Assembly: GCF_003048375.1 (NCBI RefSeq)
Contig: NZ_CP021642.1
Coordinates: forward strand, 1,556,527-1,620,526
Source of the DNA: Campylobacter concisus
GTDB lineage: Bacteria; Campylobacterota; Campylobacteria; Campylobacterales; Campylobacteraceae
Length of the DNA: 64,000 nucleotides
Direction of reading: 5' to 3'
This document shows positions 5,097-30,977 of the stretch, in pieces. Made by a program: the position numbers and the translations under genes. The notes below the pieces were generated by a model. That model was not told the origin of the DNA and ran no database searches. It worked only from the letters and a program-made list of their open reading frames with translations. The first letter of the stretch is position 1; each line of letters begins with the position of its first letter.

Positions 5097-6314
5097 ATGA
5101 GAAAATCACTATTTGGCTATGGTGGCACGACAAAGGCGATCGCTAAAAACTTCGTAAATGACGGACTTTGGGATATCTATGACGATAAATTTAGCGAAAT
5201 TTCTAAGGATGAGTTTGGCAATGCTCTTTTGCCAGTTAGCAAATTTGACCCAGCAAAAAGCGGCCTAGAGATACCAAGCCCTGGCATCCCACCTCACCAC
5301 GAGCTTATCAAAAAAGCTAAAAATTTAATCAGCGAATATGACTATTTTTATGAAATTTACAAGGCGCATCTGCCATTTAACATCTGGATAAGCGGCACAA
5401 ACGGCAAGACGACGACCACAAAGATGATGCAGCACCTGCTAGAGAGCAAAGGCTCAGTAATGGGCGGAAACGTCGGCATCGCGCTAGCAAATTTAAACCC
5501 GCACGCTAAAATTTGGATACTTGAGACTAGCTCATTTACGCTGCACTACACAAACCGCGCAACGCCTGGCATCTACGTGCTTTTGCCGATCACTCCAGAT
5601 CATCTAAGCTGGCATGGAAACATGAGCGAGTACGAAAAGGCAAAGCTTAAGCCGCTTGCTAGCATGAGTGAAACGAGCGTGGCGATCGTGCCTGAAATTT
5701 ACGCTAAAACGCCTACAAAGGCAAAAGTGATCGCATATAAGGATGAGAGCGACTTGGCTAAATTTTGCGGCGTAAATTTGGGCGATATAGCCTTTAAAAC
5801 GCCGTTTTTACTTGATGCACTGCTAGCACTTGCGGTGGAGAAAATTTTATTTGACCGCTGTGACGTTGAGCTTTTAAACACATTTGTTATCGAAGCAAAC
5901 AAGCTTGAAGAATTTACTGATAACAATGGTCGAACCTGGGTAAATGACACAAAAGCGACCAACATAGATGCGAGCATTCAAGCCGTAAAACGCTACAAAG
6001 ATCACTTCATGCACCTAATCTTAGGTGGCGATGACAAGGGCGTTAGCATGGATGAGCTATTTGAGATTTTAAAGGGCCTTAAGGTCAAAATTTACGCCAT
6101 CGGCTCAAACAGCGACAAACTTATGAATTTAGCTGCTAAATTTAGTGTGCCAGCCCTAAAATGCGACTTTTTACAAAACGCCGTAAATGAGATAAGCAAA
6201 GAGCTTAAAAGTGGCGAGATAGCGCTTCTAAGCCCAGCAGCTGCGAGCCTTGATCAGTTTAAGAGCTACGCCGAACGAGGAGATAAATTTAAAGAGTTTA
6301 TAAGGGCTCTTTGA
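5097..6314 (+). CDS. murD: UDP-N-acetylmuramoylalanine--D-glutamate ligase
   Basis: Mur ligase ATP motif GTNGKTTTTKM. RBS AGAGGA upstream. Confidence 0.9.
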   Translation: MRKSLFGYGGTTKAIAKNFVNDGLWDIYDDKFSEISKDEFGNALLPVSKFDPAKSGLEIPSPGIPPHHELIKKAKNLISEYDYFYEIYKAHLPFNIWISGTNGKTTTTKMMQHLLESKGSVMGGNVGIALANLNPHAKIWILETSSFTLHYTNRATPGIYVLLPITPDHLSWHGNMSEYEKAKLKPLASMSETSVAIVPEIYAKTPTKAKVIAYKDESDLAKFCGVNLGDIAFKTPFLLDALLALAVEKILFDRCDVELLNTFVIEANKLEEFTDNNGRTWVNDTKATNIDASIQAVKRYKDHFMHLILGGDDKGVSMDELFEILKGLKVKIYAIGSNSDKLMNLAAKFSVPALKCDFLQNAVNEISKELKSGEIALLSPAAASLDQFKSYAERGDKFKEFIRAL

Positions 6315-6463: not shown

Positions 6464-9400
6464 ATGCCAATCACCCCTAGAAATGATGCAAATTTTAAAG
6501 AAAACTTAATAGATATCATCAAACTATCATATAGCGCCGACATCAATAAGCCTTTCATCTCTGGTGACAAGCTACTTATGGGCTATAGCTTTAGTCTAAA
6601 AGACGATCTAGACACGATATGCACTCAAATTTATGGTGCTAGCAAAGCAAAAGTGATCGAGGCTATTAGAAAAACCATAACCAACACTACAACAAAAACC
6701 GTGGTTTCAAAGATAGATGCAGAAAAGCTTTTTAACGATATAAATAATGCTGCAAGGGTTGCTTACGCAAAGGCATCTGGCAGCGCTGGCGCAGAGTTGC
6801 CTGAGTTTAAATTTAGCCAAGATGAGCAGTTAAATGCCATTTTAGAGTCAAAGCTAAAGCCACTAGCGGCTGATATAAAAGAGAAGCTAAGAGGCTCGTC
6901 GCTGGCAATTTTAGAAGAGGTCAAGCTCACTTCATATGTGGCGTCTAATGTTTCAAAAGAGCACGTCGCACTCCTAGCCCTGCTTCACATAAGTAGCAAG
7001 AAAAATATCGACCCAGCTTTAGCAAGCTATATCAAGAGCAAAAGTCGCTTTAAAGCGTGGTTTTGGCTTGCTTTCGAGAGCTTTAGCGGCGATAATCCAC
7101 ATAACCTTAAACTTTTAAGAAAAAAGATCTCAGCTCAGTTTGGCCTTTATGAGTCAGACGAAAACAACAAAGCTCTAAACGACACGTCTAGCGCGGCTAG
7201 CATGGAGCGCGTCAGCTTTGGTGAGTGCATAGATATCTTTACTCACCTAAATATCTCTAAAGCTATGTATGTAACAAAAGACAAAAACGGCAAAGAGCAC
7301 AAAGAAGACGTCACACACTTAGAATTTATGCAAAAAGACAAAGAGAGATCAAACAGCACCGATTCAAAGTGTGAGGGGCTGTTTAAGCCATTTGCTGATA
7401 AGCTAAATTCTCTTTTAGCCTCTCAAACATCAAAGAAATTTAGCACTGAAAATATCTACTGCGTAAATTTAACCTCCTCTTCTACGTCTAACGCTTCAAG
7501 GATAAATAAGCTCTTAAAAAGAAGAGAAGAAGAGCTTTATAAACAAGAGGATATGCTCATACTCTGCCCTATAAAGACTGCTACTCCTATTAGGATATTT
7601 CAGCCTAAAAAGAGCAACTTTACCATCGTGCTAGCCAGCCAAAGCGAATTTGACTGCAGCGAGCTAAACCCAAAAGAGCTAAATCCTAGCAGACCAAACT
7701 ATGGCAAGCTAAATTTATGCGAGCTAATACTCACTGACTTTAAATTTGACTCTTATGAGAAAGAGAACAAAGGCGCTTCAGCTGATAGAGATATCAAATT
7801 TAAAAACGCAAAGACAAAGTCAGATAGTGTGATCCTTTATAAAGAAAACGATGATGGCAAAGATGATAAAAACAAGACAAAGGGCGCTTGCTTTACTAGC
7901 ATAAGACAAAGTAGCGATGAGATAGAGTACAAGCTAGAAGATGGTGTCGTAAAGATGAGCCACTTCCCCCTCCCCTCATCTAAAGACGAATATCTAAATT
8001 TCAACCTTCTAAATTTCGCTAAGGAGAATAACTTTACCCTTAGAGATGATAAAGACTCAGCTATGTTTGATATGAAGCTTCGTCTAGCTCTTGGTAATAA
8101 TGCAGAACCTACATCAACATCTAGCTCAAGCCTTGCTCTAACACTAAATAATCTCATCATTGAAAACGAAAAAGGTGAAGCTAGTGATATAGATAAGATA
8201 TATCTTCACCACTGCGGTGATAAAAATATATATGAGAGTACATCTTTAGTTAAAAATAAAGACTCTGATATCAAAAACTCATATACAGCTACATTTAATA
8301 TCCCTATAGATAGAAATGACAAGAAAGATACTAAGCTTATAGTCTATTCAAGTGATCTAAGCAAAATTTATGATACCAAAGGGATACATGCCTACACTGG
8401 TACAGCTATCATATCTATAGGATATAAAGATAAAAGTGGTGGTAGCTTTAGCTATACAAACAAGGTATCTTTAAGAGATATAACAGATCATATAGTAAAT
8501 GTAGTCTCTGATAGTGAGTATCCATTTAAGACAAATGAAGAGATAAGTTTAAAGGCTATATATAAACAAGAAAAAGGTAGTAAGAGGTATAAAGAGGTAC
8601 TTTGGGGATATAAGGTCATAAAAACCATAGAGTATAACGAAGTATCTAAATCAAATCCTAAAGATGTGGTAGAGCTAAAAGATAAAAAGGGTAAAGAGAT
8701 AAGATTTAAAATTTCAGATCTTATAAAAAAAGATGATCTAGAGAGGCTAAAGCAAGGTGGTCATACTATAGTATTTTTTGCATATCTTGAAGGTGAGAGT
8801 GATAAATTTAAATATCAAAGCGTATATGGTAAAAACCATATAAGGATAGATATAAAGATACCTTTATATATTAAATTTAAAGATGATAAGCTCATCATAT
8901 ATGAGTTTGAGCATGCTATAAAAGAGAAGAGCTTTAAAGCTAGTCTAAATCATGATGATGCCTTAGTAAATAAAAGTGGCTACTTATATATAAATAAAGA
9001 TATGTCAGCACAGGATATAAATATCTATGAAGATGACAAACTTACTAAAGAGCTAAAGAGTGAAGATAGTACAAATAAGAGATATCAAATTTACATAGAT
9101 GAAGCAAATTCCACAAACAATCAAAACCCAAGCAACACAAACCAAACAGGTCAAACAAAGATAAACCAAGATACCAAGTATGGTATCAATCTACTAAGCA
9201 AAGATAATATGAATAGCTTTATCAACTCTTTTAATGAGTCAAAGAGCATAACAAGAGTAGATAAGGGTATGTGGGTGGATGGGGATAGAGAAGCAAATGT
9301 TTTAATAGAGATCAAAGACTATCCTTTTACGCTAAGTATGCTAAAGCAGGTATTTACCAATATAAAAACAAATCAAGAATATATCTTGCAAGAGATGGTG

Positions 9401-10099
9401 GATGAGTTAAATAGAAGAGATGATGAAGATGGAATTCAAATGTATGTAAAATATAAGCTTGATACTAGAAATAGATTGGAGCATTTTTTTGGGCAATGCT
9501 TTGTAGAGGCAAAGACAACAAAAGGTGATTTTACTTTAGAAGAAGAACTGGGGAAATTTACAGAGAATAATATAATTAGCCATAGAGGCAAAGCCAGATT
9601 AGAAGAAGCCAAAAAACTATATCCGCAATATTATGACAAGACAGATCCTTCAAAATGGGCAAAATTTGTTGGTAACGCTATGTACTCTGATCGTGGAAAG
9701 GGTTATTTGGGTAATGATGGTGGCGATGATGGATTTAATTTTAGAGGTAGAGGAATTAAGCAACTTACTGGAAAATTTAACTATAAAGATTTCAACAAAT
9801 ATGCGCATAATAATTATTGGCTAGATGAAGAAGTAAATTTTGTAAATTCACCAGATTTATTAATTTCAGATGGAAAATATGCTCTAGTCTCTGCTGCATA
9901 TTTTTGGACTATAGAAAGACCAAAGCCTAAAAAATATCGTCTTTATGAAATAGCTGATGAAAGTAAAGCAGATTCGGACAATAGCGATATAGTAGAACGT
10001 ATAACTGCTGTTATAAATCCACAAAAACTTAGTCTTGAGCAGAGAAAAGAAGCCTATAAACGCATAAAAACAGCAAATGTGTTTAAAATATTTCAGTAA
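6464..10099 (+). CDS. giant (1211 aa) protein with no signal peptide and a C-terminal GH19 family (chitinase/endolysin-type lysozyme) catalytic domain; putative secreted cell-wall hydrolase effector
   Basis: Long uninterrupted ORF with RBS. C-terminal residues match GH19 signatures from memory: HFFGQCFVEAK vs FLAQTSHETTG; RGRGIKQLTGKFNYKDF vs YGRGPIQLSWNYNYG; NSPDLLISDGKYALVSAAYFWTIERPKP vs [29 protein letters not shown]. The N-terminal ~960 aa are K/D/N-rich with no recognisable domain. Confidence 0.75.
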   Translation: MPITPRNDANFKENLIDIIKLSYSADINKPFISGDKLLMGYSFSLKDDLDTICTQIYGASKAKVIEAIRKTITNTTTKTVVSKIDAEKLFNDINNAARVAYAKASGSAGAELPEFKFSQDEQLNAILESKLKPLAADIKEKLRGSSLAILEEVKLTSYVASNVSKEHVALLALLHISSKKNIDPALASYIKSKSRFKAWFWLAFESFSGDNPHNLKLLRKKISAQFGLYESDENNKALNDTSSAASMERVSFGECIDIFTHLNISKAMYVTKDKNGKEHKEDVTHLEFMQKDKERSNSTDSKCEGLFKPFADKLNSLLASQTSKKFSTENIYCVNLTSSSTSNASRINKLLKRREEELYKQEDMLILCPIKTATPIRIFQPKKSNFTIVLASQSEFDCSELNPKELNPSRPNYGKLNLCELILTDFKFDSYEKENKGASADRDIKFKNAKTKSDSVILYKENDDGKDDKNKTKGACFTSIRQSSDEIEYKLEDGVVKMSHFPLPSSKDEYLNFNLLNFAKENNFTLRDDKDSAMFDMKLRLALGNNAEPTSTSSSSLALTLNNLIIENEKGEASDIDKIYLHHCGDKNIYESTSLVKNKDSDIKNSYTATFNIPIDRNDKKDTKLIVYSSDLSKIYDTKGIHAYTGTAIISIGYKDKSGGSFSYTNKVSLRDITDHIVNVVSDSEYPFKTNEEISLKAIYKQEKGSKRYKEVLWGYKVIKTIEYNEVSKSNPKDVVELKDKKGKEIRFKISDLIKKDDLERLKQGGHTIVFFAYLEGESDKFKYQSVYGKNHIRIDIKIPLYIKFKDDKLIIYEFEHAIKEKSFKASLNHDDALVNKSGYLYINKDMSAQDINIYEDDKLTKELKSEDSTNKRYQIYIDEANSTNNQNPSNTNQTGQTKINQDTKYGINLLSKDNMNSFINSFNESKSITRVDKGMWVDGDREANVLIEIKDYPFTLSMLKQVFTNIKTNQEYILQEMVDELNRRDDEDGIQMYVKYKLDTRNRLEHFFGQCFVEAKTTKGDFTLEEELGKFTENNIISHRGKARLEEAKKLYPQYYDKTDPSKWAKFVGNAMYSDRGKGYLGNDGGDDGFNFRGRGIKQLTGKFNYKDFNKYAHNNYWLDEEVNFVNSPDLLISDGKYALVSAAYFWTIERPKPKKYRLYEIADESKADSDNSDIVERITAVINPQKLSLEQRKEAYKRIKTANVFKIFQ

Positions 10100-10108
10100 G
10101 GGAATAGA

Positions 10109-10900
10109 ATGAAATTTAAAATTATATTGTTAGCCCTAATTGCTAGTTTAAATTTAAGCGCTTTTGAGCCTTTAACCCCTGAAAATGCTATCAATAAATT
10201 TAGTAATGATTTTTACCAACTAAATGATTATGATTCAAGCCCTTGGAGAGACTACGGTACAAAGAGTAAACCAAGCTTTGCTTGCTATGACACCAAAGGA
10301 AAGTATAAATTTAAAAAATACTCTTTAGAAGACTTTATATGCCAGTCAGACTATAACTCTTTTAGGGATAACTATTTTGCTGATATTTATAATCTAATAA
10401 TAAAAGAAGCTCCAAATTTAAAAGAAAAAGCTCAAAAGATAGCTAGAGATAGGATAGCTAAAACTCAAAAAGAGTGTATCAGATACTCCAAAAAAGAGTA
10501 TGACTATAGCTTTGTTGCTAAATCAGCATTTTTTGTATCTGAAAGTATCTACTGCATAAAGAATTTCTATAGAGAGTATACTGCTAAGCTATCTTTAATG
10601 CTTTACGAGAACGATAAAGAGCTATTTAGTAGAATTTACGGTGAAGATTACCACAAATTTAAAGAGGTATTTGAAGATACTTTAAAATATGTACCGATAG
10701 AAAATGGTAGCATGCCAAGAGATGTAAAAAGAACTGAAATAAACAATGACTTTTTACAAAAATACAAAAGTTACCACTATGATGACGACTACCCACAGAT
10801 AGATGACATGTTATATATCATGCTCGTGCAATACTCACTCATTGATAAAAATGGCCATTTAGTTTTACCTGAAAATAGAAAAAACGATGTCAAAAACTAG
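10109..10900 (+). CDS. exported hypothetical protein (263 aa), Cys-containing
   Basis: N-terminal signal-like segment MKFKIILLALIASLNLSAF. Starts 9 nt after the giant ORF's stop. Confidence 0.6.
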   Translation: MKFKIILLALIASLNLSAFEPLTPENAINKFSNDFYQLNDYDSSPWRDYGTKSKPSFACYDTKGKYKFKKYSLEDFICQSDYNSFRDNYFADIYNLIIKEAPNLKEKAQKIARDRIAKTQKECIRYSKKEYDYSFVAKSAFFVSESIYCIKNFYREYTAKLSLMLYENDKELFSRIYGEDYHKFKEVFEDTLKYVPIENGSMPRDVKRTEINNDFLQKYKSYHYDDDYPQIDDMLYIMLVQYSLIDKNGHLVLPENRKNDVKN

Positions 10901-11363
10901 ATTTTTATACTTATTGCTACTTTTAGCTATATTTTCTAATGCTCAAAACTTAAATATAGAAACATATAGCAAGGATAACAAATGCTCCATAAGCATAAAT
11001 GATGAAGAGATATATAGCAGAGAGTGCGAGTATGAGCTTGAACCAAATTTAATATTTTATACCAAAGTTAATAGCAGCGAAGTGTGGATATTTCAAGACA
11101 TACAAAACTATGCTGCTTGCAATGGACACGGGCCTTTGAGAATTTTTGAAAAGAAAGATGACGACAAGATAAAATTTCAAGGCGAGATAGATTGGTGCGC
11201 GGGTGTGCCATTTTTTGAAGTCAGTGATAGAGGCATCTTGATAATAGACAAACCACACAAAAATGCACTAACCAACAACGGCGACCCAAATTTTAAAGGT
11301 AGCGGGAAACTATCTGACGAAAGCAAATATAAATTTGAGAATGGAAAGATCAAAAAGATATAG
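10887..11363 (+). CDS. exported hypothetical protein (158 aa)
   Basis: Signal-like N-terminus MSKTRFLYLLLLLAIFSNAQN. Overlaps the upstream ORF by 14 nt. Confidence 0.55.
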   Translation: MSKTRFLYLLLLLAIFSNAQNLNIETYSKDNKCSISINDEEIYSRECEYELEPNLIFYTKVNSSEVWIFQDIQNYAACNGHGPLRIFEKKDDDKIKFQGEIDWCAGVPFFEVSDRGILIIDKPHKNALTNNGDPNFKGSGKLSDESKYKFENGKIKKI

Positions 11364-11415
11364 TTTTGCCTTTGTTAAATAGATATAATGCGGTTAAAAA
11401 AGCACGGACATAGGT

Positions 11416-11781
11416 ATGACAAACAAGATAGTTGTTTTTTATTTTATAGCACTAGGCTTTATAGCGCATAACGCCTACGCAAAAAATATAAATTTAACGG
11501 GGATTTACAAGAATGAGTCTTGTAATATTTCAATAGAAATAACGAAAAATACCAATAAAGCGAAGTATTTTTACAAGATAGTGGAGAATAATCAGACAAA
11601 ATCACAAGGCTATATATCAAGCATAAAAAGCAACGGCGAAGGTGGATTTTATATAAAATTAAAAAAGATTGACGGGATGTATGAAAATGGTAGCATAGTC
11701 ATACAAAACTACGGAAACTCTATGAGCAAGTATATTTATTTTGAAGATTGCGATAGTAAATACTTAAAATTTGATAAATGA
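11416..11781 (+). CDS. exported hypothetical protein (121 aa)
   Basis: Signal-like N-terminus MTNKIVVFYFIALGFIAHNAYA. Confidence 0.55.
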   Translation: MTNKIVVFYFIALGFIAHNAYAKNINLTGIYKNESCNISIEITKNTNKAKYFYKIVENNQTKSQGYISSIKSNGEGGFYIKLKKIDGMYENGSIVIQNYGNSMSKYIYFEDCDSKYLKFDK

Positions 11782-11836
11782 CCCAGTGTGTGATTTTGTA
11801 ATTACTATTTCGCAGTAAATTTTAAAAGAAAGAACT

Positions 11837-12319
11837 ATGGTAGTTTTTAGATTTTTTATTTTAATCAATTTATTCTTTGCATTTATCAAGGCTGATGAGT
11901 TCGGGTATTACTATGAAAATGAAAAATTTTTAATAGCTATTCTGATGTTCGAATGTGAGGGTGACATACATTGTACAAATGGTGGTTATTTTGGGGTAAA
12001 TAAAAGAAATAGCAAAAGTTTAGAAATTTTATCAAAACCAACACCAATAAAAAATAGTATAAATGAGCGCTTGATGGGGTATAAATTTAGAAATTCAAAC
12101 TACATGTATGAAATTTATGGCGACATAATGTCTGGTGGAAAAATGTATTTGAACGTTTTTAAGCAAGGAAAAACTATTTTTAAAAGCGATGATTTACAAC
12201 AGATAGAACAAGAAGAATTCCTATCCAAACTTAAAGAAATAGATAAAAGGCTACCTGTGAGCTTTGAAAAATTTTATAAGAAGCTACAAAACAAATACAA
12301 AAATGAAAACCATCAATAA
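11837..12319 (+). CDS. exported hypothetical protein (160 aa)
   Basis: Hydrophobic N-terminus MVVFRFFILINLFFAFIKA. Confidence 0.5.
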   Translation: MVVFRFFILINLFFAFIKADEFGYYYENEKFLIAILMFECEGDIHCTNGGYFGVNKRNSKSLEILSKPTPIKNSINERLMGYKFRNSNYMYEIYGDIMSGGKMYLNVFKQGKTIFKSDDLQQIEQEEFLSKLKEIDKRLPVSFEKFYKKLQNKYKNENHQ

Positions 12320-13010
12320 AATAATTCTTTTTTATCTAGTGCTATTTATGTCGCTAGCTCTTTTTGCAGAGCAAACCACCAAGCAGTGCTTTAGTAGATA
12401 TTTAGATAGCAAGGCTCATTTTATCAACGATGACAAATTTGATAAATTTGATTTTTATGGCATTATAGCTGACACTCGTACAAAATTTTTGGGCTATATC
12501 GGAGCTGATTATCACAGGCTACATATAAATTTTAACAGCGTCAAAAAGGTCTCAAAGACAAAATATATAGTATCTGGTGAATATAAAATAACCGCAGAGG
12601 CTCGCCCATTTAACGGCGAAATTCAAATAACCAAAATAAAAAAGTATATAAATTTAAACTACAGCGTTGATGACTTTATAAAAGGCAAGATCAAAGCCCA
12701 AGGCATAGCCTTAGCGAGCTATATCTTAAAAGGCGATGGAGGTTTTCAAGCCAAAGGTCAAATGCTCATAAAATGGTACATTAATAGCGATCAAAGACTA
12801 GCGTATGACGATATATCAGAAGATGAGGATATGTACGCAAATGATCTATTTTGTGGAGAGTGCAAGGTGGGCAAGGCGCAAGCAAAACCATGCGCATGGG
12901 GGCATTACAGGATACCAAACAGCGGCGATCTTGATGTGGGAGTTGGGGAATTTAGCCCCAATACAAAATATCTTAACAACGGCTGGAGCGACTTTAACAA
13001 GGATGAATAA
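12303..13010 (+). CDS. exported hypothetical protein (236 aa; start revised from 12264 to MKTINK)
   Basis: Signal-like ILFYLVLFMSLALFA. Overlaps the upstream ORF by 17 nt. Confidence 0.55.
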   Translation: MKTINKIILFYLVLFMSLALFAEQTTKQCFSRYLDSKAHFINDDKFDKFDFYGIIADTRTKFLGYIGADYHRLHINFNSVKKVSKTKYIVSGEYKITAEARPFNGEIQITKIKKYINLNYSVDDFIKGKIKAQGIALASYILKGDGGFQAKGQMLIKWYINSDQRLAYDDISEDEDMYANDLFCGECKVGKAQAKPCAWGHYRIPNSGDLDVGVGEFSPNTKYLNNGWSDFNKDE

Positions 13011-13542
13011 ATTTTCTATAAAAAGCTTTTTAATGCTATCTATAATTTTAGGCTTTCTAAATTTAGCTGCTAGCGAAAATTTACCACGCATAACGAGTGT
13101 AGATAATATCAAGGTTGGTAAAAAACTAGCTTTACATAACGTCAAATACTTCTTAGATGGCGAAAAGGCAAGCTTTATAAATTTAGACAAAACGCAAATA
13201 ATGACGCTTGATTTTTGCTGTGGAGGTAACGGCGAAATTCAAAGGATAAACGTCAAATTTTATGATAAAAATTTGACTAAAGATTATATAAATTTCAGCA
13301 AGATAAAAGAATTTACTACAAATTCTGGTATCAAGCTTGGCGACAAACAAGAGCAAATTTTAAATAAGCTAGGCAAGCCAAACGACCTACTAGAGGAAAA
13401 TGACACAACTACTGTTACCTATACCACCAAGCAAAGTAAGAGCCGCCTCTTGCAAGAATTTGACATGCCGCTCTACTATGAGAAATTTATCTTTTATGGC
13501 GATGTTTTAAAAGAGTATGAATTTGGCTTTGAGTATCCGTGA
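13003..13542 (+). CDS. exported hypothetical protein (179 aa; start revised to MNKFSIK)
   Basis: Signal-like SFLMLSIILGFLNLAAS. Overlaps the upstream ORF by 8 nt. The 12805 start in the ORF track overlaps the previous gene out of frame. Confidence 0.55.
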   Translation: MNKFSIKSFLMLSIILGFLNLAASENLPRITSVDNIKVGKKLALHNVKYFLDGEKASFINLDKTQIMTLDFCCGGNGEIQRINVKFYDKNLTKDYINFSKIKEFTTNSGIKLGDKQEQILNKLGKPNDLLEENDTTTVTYTTKQSKSRLLQEFDMPLYYEKFIFYGDVLKEYEFGFEYP

Positions 13543-13711: not shown

Positions 13712-14515
13712 GTGAAAACTTCAAGGAGCAAGATGGAACCGATTTACAAAACGCAGATCATCAAATATAAAGGCGAGCAAAAAGCGCAAGTTGATGATAT
13801 CTTGGTGCGTGAGATCAAGCTTGAAATTTACATAAATGATAAAAAATTTGGTGCCGTTATGGCAACGCCAACTGATCAAAAGGCGCTTGCTGTAGGCTAT
13901 TTGATCAGCGAAAACGTCATCACAAAGCCAGAGGACATAACAGAAGTTAGGCTCTCAAGCGATGAGCTAAGCGTCTATGTAAGCGCCAAAGTGAACGAAA
14001 AGCGCCTAGAGCAGTTTGACGAAGAAAAGGTCATAATAAGTGGCTGCGGTAGAAGCTCAACGGCAAATATCGACCCACAGGCGATGGCAGCAAGAGCCGT
14101 AAAAAGCGGGGCTAAATTTAACAAAGATATGATCCTTGCTCAAATGAAGGAGTTTTACACGCAGTGCGAGCTTTACGAGATGACTGGCTGCGTGCATACG
14201 GCAAAGCTTTTTGTGAGCGAAGATAAATTTTACATAGGCGAGGATATAGCTCAGCACAACACGATCGATAAAGCCGTTGGCAAGGCTGTTTTAGACGGAG
14301 CTAACTTAGCAAATTCATTTTTAATGGTGAGTGGCAGGCTGAGTTCAGAGATGGTCGCAAAGGCTGTTATGCACGGCGTCCCAGCGCTTATCTCAAGGAC
14401 AGCGCCAACTAGCCTTGGCGTAGTGATCGCTCGTAAATTTGAGCTTACACTTTGTGGCTTTGCAAGGGGCGAAAATATCAACGTTTATAGCGGCGAAGAG
14501 AGAATTTATGAGTAA
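13712..14515 (+). CDS. fdhD: formate dehydrogenase accessory sulfurtransferase FdhD-like
   Basis: About 260 aa with the SGCGRSS Cys loop and overall FdhD-like layout. Confidence 0.6.
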   Translation: MKTSRSKMEPIYKTQIIKYKGEQKAQVDDILVREIKLEIYINDKKFGAVMATPTDQKALAVGYLISENVITKPEDITEVRLSSDELSVYVSAKVNEKRLEQFDEEKVIISGCGRSSTANIDPQAMAARAVKSGAKFNKDMILAQMKEFYTQCELYEMTGCVHTAKLFVSEDKFYIGEDIAQHNTIDKAVGKAVLDGANLANSFLMVSGRLSSEMVAKAVMHGVPALISRTAPTSLGVVIARKFELTLCGFARGENINVYSGEERIYE

Positions 14516-29055: not shown

Positions 29056-30977
29056 TTACTTCTCAAACGCTTTTTGCAAGCTAAATGGAAACGCTTGATA
29101 GCCCATAGCATTTGTCATTTTTATCTCGATGCTAGGCTCTTTTGCACCCCACTCAAACTCATCGATGTGCGGGCTAGGAAGTCCTACTGGGCGACCTTTT
29201 GCGATGTCAAACTGCATACCAGCAACAGCTGAATAGACCATCACGCTATCAAGGTCATCTTGATACTGCGTAAGGCTAGTAACTGAGCTATACCACTCTT
29301 TGCCACGCTCTTTGCCGTACTCCCAGATCTGCTCAACGGTCTTTTTGTTCTCATCGATCTTATAAACGACCGCACGAGAGTACTTCATGCCAGCGATGGC
29401 TGGTTGCTCCATGCCCCTTGTGTCGCCGTTGTCAAAGACGCTTAAATAAATTTCGCCCTTTTTAGACTTGCTGTCTATCCTAAATGCCGTATGTTGCGTC
29501 CATTGCCAGTCAAAGCCACCTTTGTCGCTCTCGTATCCTGGGCATTTTGAGTACTCATCTTCGCAGACGATCTTGTTGCCTTTGCTATCGACTGGCTGAA
29601 GCAGCTTATCTTTAAATTTATCGCTCCAACCCTTGTGAGCGCCCATGATCCATTTTACTTGTTTATCACGGCCGATCTTTATAACTGCGTCTTGATGGCG
29701 GCTTGAGATGATGATGCTATCATCGCTTGGGTCGTAATCCACACTATTTACGTGTGCCCAGTTGCGTCCAGGACCAGCGCCAACTATGTCGCCCCATTTA
29801 TCGTGTGTATCCATAGACTGAAGCTCATCAGAGCTTGCTGTGTGGCCTGCTTTTTTAGCGTCTATGTTTAAGCAAACTGCGCCTTGATCAAGTGTTTTTA
29901 GCACGATGTCGCGGTAAGGATCAAGGATTTCATATAGTCTAAAGTCATCAACTACGTTGCCGTCGCGGTCAAGCTCAACGATGACATCGCGCACTGTTCT
30001 TACGTTTTTGCCATCAGCCCTTTTGTAGTCGGCATTTGCCACGCGCAAGAAGTAGTGTCCGTTTTGTGCTACGTCCATACTGTTCTTACGTTTTTGCCAT
30101 CAGCCCTTTTGTAGTCGGCATTTGCCACGCGCAAGAAGTAGTGTCCGTTTTGTGCTACGTCCATTGAGTGAGAGAAGTCGTTGTAGCTAGCTGGTAGCTC
30201 GCGGTTGAAAATTTCTCTACCCATGATGTCGTATTTTGCGTATCTTTGGCCATATCCCCAAGTCATAGCGCCGTCGTCATTTTGCTTAAAGCCCATCATA
30301 ACGCCAGCATGAAATGGCTGTTTTAGGTCGTAAATTTTACTTGGCTCAAGATACCATCTAACCTCGCCTTTTGTATCAAGGATGAAGTTATTTGGGCTGT
30401 AGTTCCACTCGATCGCACCGCCAGCTGGGTTATTCCAAACGACTTTTGTGCCCTTGCCTGTTTTATTTACAAAGTTATTTACATAGTAGAGGCGGTTTGC
30501 AAATTTAGCACTCGCAGGCTTAGTAACCTCGATCTTGTCAAATAGCGCGCCCTTTTGATTTGGTGTGCCAGCGCTCTCTAGGTAGATAGCTGGAGCGTAA
30601 ATTTTATAGCTCTCTTTTATATGCTCAGTCTTGCCCTTGTAACTCTTGTCGTACTCGACTTCAACGGTGTTTTGATAGTCAGCATACATACCAAAAACTG
30701 GGATGCCACCATGTGTGCGAAGATGCTTGTCAGCCACTTTGTAGCTTATCACCTGACCACCTTGTTTTGGCACGATAGTGACCTTAGCGTTGCTTAGTGT
30801 GTAGCCGCCATTTTTGATGACTGCTGTAAGTGGGGCAGTATCGTATGGATTTACCACTACTTCGCCGATAGCTCCTGTTATAGCGTAGTCAAGTTTAGCT
30901 CCGCTTGGACCGCCTATCGCAAAAGCAGCCGTACAAAGTGCAGAAGCAAGCGCAACAGAACACAAAGTTTTTCTCAT
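29056..30977 (-). pseudogene. periplasmic arylsulfate sulfotransferase-like beta-propeller protein, split into two ORFs by an 86-bp tandem duplication
   Basis: The 5' ORF (30069-30977) has a signal peptide. The 3' ORF (29056-30078) restarts with the same residues MDVAQNGHYFLRVANADYKRADGKNVRTV. Removing one 86-bp copy gives a continuous ~611-aa protein. Confidence 0.6.
29993..30164. repeat. perfect 2 x 86-bp direct tandem duplication inside a CDS
   Basis: 29993-30078 is identical to 30079-30164 (ACTGTTCTTACGTTTTTGCCATCAGCCC...GCTACGTCCAT). 86 is not a multiple of 3. Confidence 0.9.

Follow-up and report, generated by a model that had tools for sequence, protein, structure and literature searches.

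A six-gene array of predicted exported proteins behind a polymorphic cell-wall toxin of Campylobacter concisus: a probable immunity locus

Organization of the toxin gene and the downstream array

The window, i.e. the whole stretch of DNA analysed here, comprises 64,000 nucleotides (nt) of the Campylobacter concisus contig NZ_CP021642.1 (positions 1,556,527 to 1,620,526). Our subject is an array of six small open reading frames (ORFs), labelled o1–o6, which occupies positions 10109-13542 of the window downstream of a gene for a 1211-amino acid (aa) protein with a cell-wall hydrolase domain of the GH19 type at its C-terminus. Below, CT stands for a C-terminal toxin domain, L-numbers for related loci and f-numbers for other ORF families. 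The toxin gene and the array are made up of the following features:

6464..9301, + strand: carrier region, aa 1 to ~946 of the 1211-aa toxin; conserved, beta-rich, without signal peptide
9302..10099, + strand: exchangeable C-terminal toxin domain CT0; GH19-type endolysin-like muramidase
10109-10900, + strand: o1, 263 aa; predicted exported; candidate cognate immunity protein for the GH19 CT
10887-11363, + strand: o2, 158 aa; predicted exported; orphan immunity candidate, lytic-transglycosylase-type CT
11416-11781, + strand: o3, 121 aa; predicted exported; orphan immunity candidate, GH19b CT
11837-12319, + strand: o4, 160 aa; predicted exported; directly behind o3
12303-13010, + strand: o5, 235 aa from ATG; predicted exported; orphan immunity candidate, DUF5675-type CT
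13003-13542, + strand: o6, 179 aa; predicted exported; orphan immunity candidate, YkuD-like CT

The six same-strand ORFs and the three overlaps between them that a preliminary description of this DNA had recorded are exact in the sequence: o1 and o2 share 14 nt (ATG at 10887, TAG at 10898-10900), o4 and o5 share 17 nt (ATG at 12303, TAA at 12317-12319), and o5 and o6 share 8 nt (ATG at 13003, TAA at 13008-13010), while o2-o3 and o3-o4 are separated by 52 and 55 nt, respectively. An alternative TTG start of o5 at 12264 is likewise open, and some gene callers place the start of o6 at 13033. From these overlaps the same description had deduced translational coupling within one transcript. This arrangement is plausible across the array because our scan found no terminator-like site between the array genes, its sole + strand match (11193-11210) lying inside o2, and because o2 and o5 are not preceded by a Shine-Dalgarno sequence. 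The 17-nt overlap, however, merely reflects the first codons of o5 (ATGAA.AC.ATCAATAA), so that the internal TAA ends every upstream ORF read in that frame. Indeed, toxin genes located 5' of o5 in other strains terminate at the same TAA, and we therefore see this overlap as a side effect of how modules are joined. Scans of the island for repeats, promoters and terminators returned nothing beyond chance and no meaningful repeats, and searches of the window for Rfam families and tRNA genes found none.

The upstream protein and its exchangeable C-terminus

Judging from its relatives, the upstream 1211-aa protein is a polymorphic toxin composed of a conserved carrier of ~950 aa and a swappable cell-wall hydrolase. 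It has no N-terminal hydrophobic segment and no signal peptide. Over 78-79% of the query, counted from the N-terminus, its homologs are ~95% identical; beyond this their C-termini differ, with annotations as M23, CHAP, DUF5675, GH24 or GH19. Local BLAST places the break between the conserved and variable parts at aa 946-960. Eight CT clusters were obtained in the local comparison (one masked sequence was left out), with further types among distant members; the variants include GH19, M23, CHAP, DUF5675, YkuD-like, lytic transglycosylase, GH24-like and muramidase domains. The carrier itself has 45 relatives among 1.84 billion representative proteins, and the AlphaFold2 (AF2) model of its aa 271-950, with a predicted local distance difference test score (pLDDT) of 77, consists of tandem beta-sandwich domains. 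Pfam lends little support to the identification of the neighbour of the array as a GH19 protein (E 0.014, under the threshold; E 0.001-0.014 across searches), which is nevertheless upheld by profile comparison of the last 265 residues with the PDB, which yields GH19-type endolysins at 6e-18 to 1e-10 (8xcl_A, 6e-18; 4ok7_A, 7e-18), and by a match to PHROG endolysin families at 3.5e-24. Consistent with this assignment, the GH19 motifs HFFGQ..VE, FRGRGxxQLTG and SAAYFW are found in the CT0 alignment, HFxxQ..E and GRGxxQ(L/I)TG being invariant among relatives. A prophage lysis cassette was also considered as the source of the GH19 gene and rejected, given the lack of phage genes in the window and related loci, the length of 1211 aa and the polymorphic C-terminus.

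Among the other CTs, Pfam and PDB searches support M23 (5e-9), CHAP (1e-10) and DUF5675 (1.3e-19), and the YkuD-like CT displays the motif HPDG...GTLGCIGV together with a weak match to Pfam YkuD (E 0.006). The lytic-transglycosylase CT, found in L042/L043 and partnered there with o2, is ~70% identical over 165 residues to PDB chain 9udh_A, a 'lytic transglycosidase' (E 1e-65); the PDB contains no o2-like chain, and a literature search found no paper citing 9udh_A. More distant members of the carrier family have an N-acetylmuramidase (PF11860) or a Tlde1-like domain. All CT domains identified with significant support are thus of kinds predicted to act on peptidoglycan, which is why we propose that all of the corresponding immunity proteins are periplasmic.

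Export signals and sequence families of o1–o6

All six N-termini begin with K/R residues followed by a strong hydrophobic stretch (best 12-residue Kyte-Doolittle mean 2.5-2.85), in agreement with their earlier description as signal-peptide-like, and none of the proteins has a later transmembrane-like segment. A plausible signal peptidase I (SPase I) site with Ala at position -1 can be recognized in 6/6 proteins (LSA↓F, SNA↓Q, AYA↓K, IKA↓D, LFA↓E and LAA↓S), and by sequence reading the lipobox Cys is absent from all of them. A crude single export rule is positive for 6/6 array ORFs vs 7/49 of the remaining window ORFs. We infer that o1–o6 are exported by the general secretory (Sec) pathway with cleavage by SPase I. 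Beyond the export signals, the six proteins have little in common: the best E-value in an all-vs-all BLASTP comparison was 0.086, so that they are as dissimilar as first reported. Nor do they belong to a recognized family, since searches of Pfam, NCBIfam, PADLOC, PHROGs and PDB sequences produced no significant match, only sub-threshold noise. In particular, the same five resources gave no sequence match between o1–o6 and the Tsi, Tai, Tgi, Tldi, Ivy, MliC/PliC, PliG and LprI families.

These signals bear directly on the possibility, raised in the preliminary description, that the six are a set of accessory chaperones or adaptors, which the toxin would need in order to be loaded or secreted. 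Type VI secretion system (T6SS) cargo effectors often have neighbouring adaptor genes, and o4, which shows no toxin-specific pairing, is conserved (20 clusters, 66-97% identity) as an accessory protein might be. Yet export signals are found on all six products and none on the toxin, so the two would be in different compartments before secretion, and at that stage a protein that has been exported is in no position to chaperone a signal-less toxin still in the cytoplasm. Moreover, the known T6SS adaptors (DUF4123, DUF1795 and DUF2169) are cytoplasmic and were not detected, and the genes follow the variable toxin domain rather than the conserved carrier. A chaperone or adaptor role, having found no support, is therefore highly improbable.

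One-to-one pairing of toxin domains with exported proteins

Around 100 related loci were assembled from exact-protein look-ups, one genome per GTDB species and a metagenome scan; ORFs were called and clustered, and the gene following each CT was tabulated. Across these loci, CT type and next gene stand in a one-to-one relation, with gaps of -29 to +11 nt that are exceeded only in a few degraded copies:

GH19 CT, followed by o1: gap 9-11 nt; every locus with that CT type except one divergent subtype (f25 between)
Lytic transglycosylase CT, followed by o2: gap 4 nt; full-length toxins of L042, L043 and L082
GH19b CT, followed by o3 and then o4: gap 8 nt in L078
DUF5675 CT, followed by o5: 17-nt overlap; full-length 1113-aa toxin of L025
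YkuD-like CT, followed by o6: gap 1 nt; full-length 1078-aa toxin of L050
M23 CT, followed by f2: 11/11
CHAP CT, followed by f54
GH24-like CT, followed by f36
303-aa CT (no type given), followed by f42

The same partners are found behind orphan CT fragments. Lytic-transglycosylase fragments precede o2 in L080, L081 and L083, DUF5675 fragments overlap o5 in L042, L043 and L066, and a YkuD-like fragment precedes o6 in L040. In the case of o3, the toxin ORF of L078 runs continuously into GH19b (HFLAQ..ES, GRGLIQITG, INGGFNGFNDR) and the o3 downstream of it displays 87% identity; L086 has the same order, and a 126-aa paralog of o3 (54% identity) lies behind GH19b fragments in L005-L007, L022 and L029. 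Each family of the array but o4 is thus located, in some strain, directly behind one specific peptidoglycan-hydrolase CT, as would be expected of the immunity or orphan-immunity array suggested at the outset. Furthermore, most copies of the partner families f2, f25, f36, f42 and f54 carry export signals. The o1 family comprises 814 clusters at 90% identity, all from Campylobacter where the source names the organism, and 13/27 o1 copies in the one-genome-per-species set directly follow a GH19 CT. The identities of GH19 CTs and o1 proteins co-vary (Mantel r 0.887, 0/2000 permutations, 13 distinct GH19-o1 pairs). In L033 and L039, a CT+o1 module 92-93% / 87% identical to that of the window is attached to a carrier only 73-80% identical to it, and the module has therefore been exchanged as a unit. 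Collectively, the strict pairing and the GH19-o1 co-variation argue that o1 is most likely the cognate immunity candidate for the resident GH19 domain, and that o2, o3, o5 and o6 are most likely orphan immunity genes, directed against toxin variants of other C. concisus strains, whose toxin modules are absent here.

The pairing also separates this reading from one in which a recombination hot spot has gathered unrelated small exported proteins, whether general lysozyme inhibitors or proteins of surface, adhesion or nutrient-binding type, none of them a specific antitoxin. Such a collection would fit the lack of homology to known immunity or inhibitor families, the lack of a toxin partner for o4, the movement of o2-o3-o4 as a block and the many copies that have no adjoining toxin domain. 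However, it does not fit the one-to-one relation between CT type and next gene in all loci examined, with gaps or overlaps of a few nt, or the co-variation of CT and o1 beyond that of the carrier backbone. As for the toxin-less copies, these are expected of orphan immunity genes, and orphan toxin fragments precede them in other strains. We therefore regard an assembly of this kind as improbable.

The divergent, shorter GH19 subtype (CT of 247-256 aa) occurs in L035, L060 and L061, where f25 (186 aa), overlapping it by 29 nt, is the next gene; o1 then follows f25 in L035 and L061. f25 may represent a second, subtype-specific immunity family for GH19.

Variation of the murD-fdhD island

In this lineage, the toxin gene and the array form an island between two border genes:

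5097..6314, + strand: murD, conserved left border of the variable island; Mur_ligase_M in identical loci
13712..14515, + strand: fdhD, right border of the island in this lineage; Pfam FdhD-NarQ match in identical loci

In most genome loci murD lies directly 5' of the toxin gene. The GC content is 0.31 within the island (8001-12000) vs ~0.40-0.45 in the flanks, and no integrase or recombinase ORF adjoining the array was found in the window or in identical loci. Comparison of cassette presence and absence between strains, which the preliminary description had recommended, revealed that the content of the murD-fdhD site varies widely: L022 has at least 21 ORFs at this site against six in the window, and L006 and L047 have different sets. 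In relatives, the orphan toxin modules downstream restart at fixed points of the carrier (aa 271, 364, 498, 534, 565, 843 and 916), which would serve as homology handles for recombination and could account for the orphan-cassette pattern. In the window, the gaps of the array are too short for toxin fragments and only the immunity genes remain. Consistent with the orphan status of o2, o5 and o6, the window toxin has no BLASTP match to their partners, the lytic-transglycosylase, DUF5675 and YkuD-like CTs, and the canonical GH19b CT of o3 differs from the resident GH19.

o4 directly follows o3 in 6/6 genome loci and likewise in metagenome loci, where the CHAP-partner gene f54 sometimes lies between the two. 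Its family is small and comes from C. concisus in all cases where the source names the organism. From this context, o4 appears to belong to the GH19b-o3 module.

Two further observations concern the array in other genomes. In L001 (12195-12903) and L018 (10467-11175), o5 is split into ORFs of 160 and 82 aa in loci otherwise near-identical, suggesting that an orphan immunity gene is undergoing decay in some strains. In L005/L007 (4485-11713), as well as in L025, L028, L056 and L066, genes for a pair of large proteins (~627 and ~1760 aa) take the place of fdhD behind the array; the two have similar N-termini (MKDKKLIIKDIQGEIYVISQDGSIKMLKDGDEIY...), in which we see a likeness to the N-terminal prefix found in giant adhesins of type I secretion.

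Delivery route and proposed function

Two lines of evidence connect the toxin with T6SS. First, aa 305-700 of the carrier have homologs (29-35% identity, E 1e-23) encoded in vgrG / tssEFG islands of C. coli and H. cinaedi. Second, in L094-L099, L059 and L068, a toxin and array with relatives of o1–o6 abut a convergent vgrG-hcp pair. T6SS genes have been reported for 82-83% of C. concisus genomes (PMC6018663), and the toxin, as noted above, lacks a signal peptide. Taken together, these contexts make T6SS the likely delivery route of the toxin. By contrast with vgrG-hcp, the families f29, f30, f35, f37 and f44, which lie downstream of arrays in other genomes and were considered as T6SS genes, look like glycosyl- and acyltransferases of the lipooligosaccharide (LOS)/lipopolysaccharide core, and thus provide no T6SS link.

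The T6SS-associated loci contain additional genes of possible interest. Past vgrG-hcp in L098 (16290-19265) and L099 (12362-15267) a lipoprotein-like ORF (VKFILSILALLAI.FLVGC...) is repeatedly paired with a small ORF that begins MSDQISTKDLISKF, with a phage-type integrase behind them in L099; a mobile T6SS island may thus carry additional effector-immunity pairs. In the vgrG islands of H. cinaedi and C. coli (L087, 7982-10001; L088, 8950-9987), exported proteins with the motif AKPSFDC.KATTKVEK.IC precede the carrier homolog, which has a weak N-terminal phage-lysozyme signature, and enzyme and inhibitor may be in reversed order there.

We propose, with a probability of roughly three in four, that the array forms the immunity portion of a locus for a polymorphic cell-wall toxin, that the toxin is most probably delivered by T6SS, that o1 is the cognate immunity gene and that o2, o3, o5 and o6 are orphan immunity genes. 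According to this proposal, the ~950-aa carrier would carry a swappable hydrolase of peptidoglycan (GH19 in this strain) into the periplasm of adjacent bacteria, most probably via T6SS, and the six downstream products would reach the producer's own periplasm by Sec. There, binding of o1 would block the GH19 domain that sister cells deliver, whereas o2, o3, o5 and o6 would block the lytic transglycosylase, GH19b, DUF5675 and YkuD-like domains, respectively, that are mounted on the carrier in other C. concisus strains. The orphan genes may have been left behind or gained when toxin-immunity modules recombined, the toxin fragments having since been deleted in this strain. The immunity or orphan-immunity reading offered at the outset can thus be refined, in that the resident GH19 domain pairs with o1 alone, while o2, o3, o5 and o6 match CTs that are absent here and o4 pairs with none that was found.

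Several observations weigh against our proposal. Export was called by a heuristic and by sequence reading, not by SignalP. The AF2 model of o1 is poor (pLDDT 54, mostly helical, 36-sequence alignment), and an inhibitor fold or interface is therefore without structural support. For o4, no toxin partner was found by metagenome scan, homolog search or context look-ups, and the gene is never directly behind a CT. o2-o3-o4 often move as a block, and part of the pairing could therefore reflect linkage rather than function. Finally, there is no T6SS gene in the 64-kb window, and the carrier has no recognized T6SS delivery marker (PAAR, MIX, FIX, Rhs or DUF4150).

The last two points lend themselves to an alternative that keeps the same immunity roles and changes the route: the 1211-aa protein would be a released colicin- or pesticin-like bacteriocin, or cargo of another route, and would enter via an outer-membrane receptor. 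No T6SS gene is anywhere near the murD-fdhD locus, in most genomes the neighbours of the island are housekeeping or LOS genes, and the carrier is a string of beta-sandwiches without a T6SS marker domain. Pesticin, a muramidase bacteriocin with a periplasmic immunity protein, provides a precedent. Given the vgrG-hcp linkage of relatives, we consider this route unlikely. It is similarly doubtful that the carrier, seen only in Campylobacter and Helicobacter, represents a new class of cell-wall-dedicated polymorphic effector with an internal YkuD-like fold, either loaded onto VgrG in a novel manner or independent of T6SS; o4, with its unusual degree of conservation and no toxin domain that it follows, might then be a new accessory or broad-spectrum protector and not a classical immunity protein.

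Other features of the window

Two observations concern genes outside the island. On the - strand at 29056-30977, adjacent ORFs of 302 and 340 aa with a 10-nt overlap match the N- and C-terminal parts of an arylsulfotransferase (PF17425 and PF05935 positions 2-124, then PF05935 positions 99-373); the pair has the appearance of a single gene broken by a frameshift, or of a pseudogene. Also on the - strand, 58316-60544 encodes a protein of 742 aa whose N-terminus is of the export type and for which Pfam gave no match at E <=1e-5; a 172-aa ORF predicted to be exported comes next.

Comparison with known systems

C. concisus inhabits the human mouth and gut and has been linked to inflammatory bowel disease; its strains co-exist and replace one another. 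If our proposal is true, the locus would be a major determinant of competition between strains, combining one swappable toxin with strain-specific shields. In addition, it would provide at least nine unannotated candidate families of inhibitors for GH19, M23, CHAP, lytic transglycosylase, DUF5675 and YkuD-like enzymes, each with a defined partner. Our literature search on polymorphic toxins and immunity proteins of C. concisus returned a genus-wide T6SS survey only (PMC9676060), which covered ±5 genes around vgrG and does not describe the murD-fdhD locus; nor is this locus mentioned elsewhere in the searchable literature. Thus, the kind of system is already well known, whereas the carrier family, the all-peptidoglycan repertoire, the roughly nine partner families and the murD-fdhD array are undescribed in the searchable literature.

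Like Ivy, MliC/PliC, PliG and LprI, the array products are exported proteins proposed to act as periplasmic blockers of muramidases, but they have no Pfam or PDB match to these inhibitors, which are general and usually unlinked to a toxin gene. The locus resembles pesticin/Pim in that a lysozyme-like toxin domain is joined to an N-terminal part for delivery and the immunity protein would act in the periplasm. It differs in that there is no homology, receptor/TonB import finds no support here, and the relatives are vgrG-linked. Closer parallels are the T6SS pairs Tae-Tai and Tge-Tgi (Tse1-Tsi1, Tse3-Tsi3) and Tlde1-Tldi1, which likewise feature a signal-less effector with an amidase/CHAP, M23, muramidase or L,D-peptidase-like domain and, immediately 3' on the same strand, an immunity gene with a Sec signal, and to which the vgrG-hcp links of relatives also point. 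Unlike in those pairs, the effector here is large and polymorphic, with a ~950-aa carrier, the window locus is not beside T6SS genes, and its proteins have no sequence membership in Tai, Tgi, Tsi or Tldi.

In its modular structure, the locus is akin to Rhs, CdiA-CT/CdiI and MafB, in which a conserved N-terminal part is joined to a variable toxin C-terminus and each toxin has its own downstream immunity gene; as in those loci, the orphan modules of relatives open with a piece of the carrier usable for recombination. However, the carrier is not an Rhs/YD, haemagglutinin-repeat or Maf protein, the toxin domains identified with significant support are of kinds that target peptidoglycan rather than nucleic acids, and the window retains the immunity genes, with the orphan toxin pieces gone. 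Unlike the acquired interbacterial defence (AID) clusters of Bacteroidales, the array is joined to an active-looking toxin gene at a fixed site, and the window contains no associated recombinase, integrase or repeat structure and no tRNA. Nevertheless, with AID clusters and with the orphan immunity genes of Vibrio cholerae it shares a set of dissimilar immunity genes without cognate toxins that varies between strains, in each case among strains of one species in a shared habitat.

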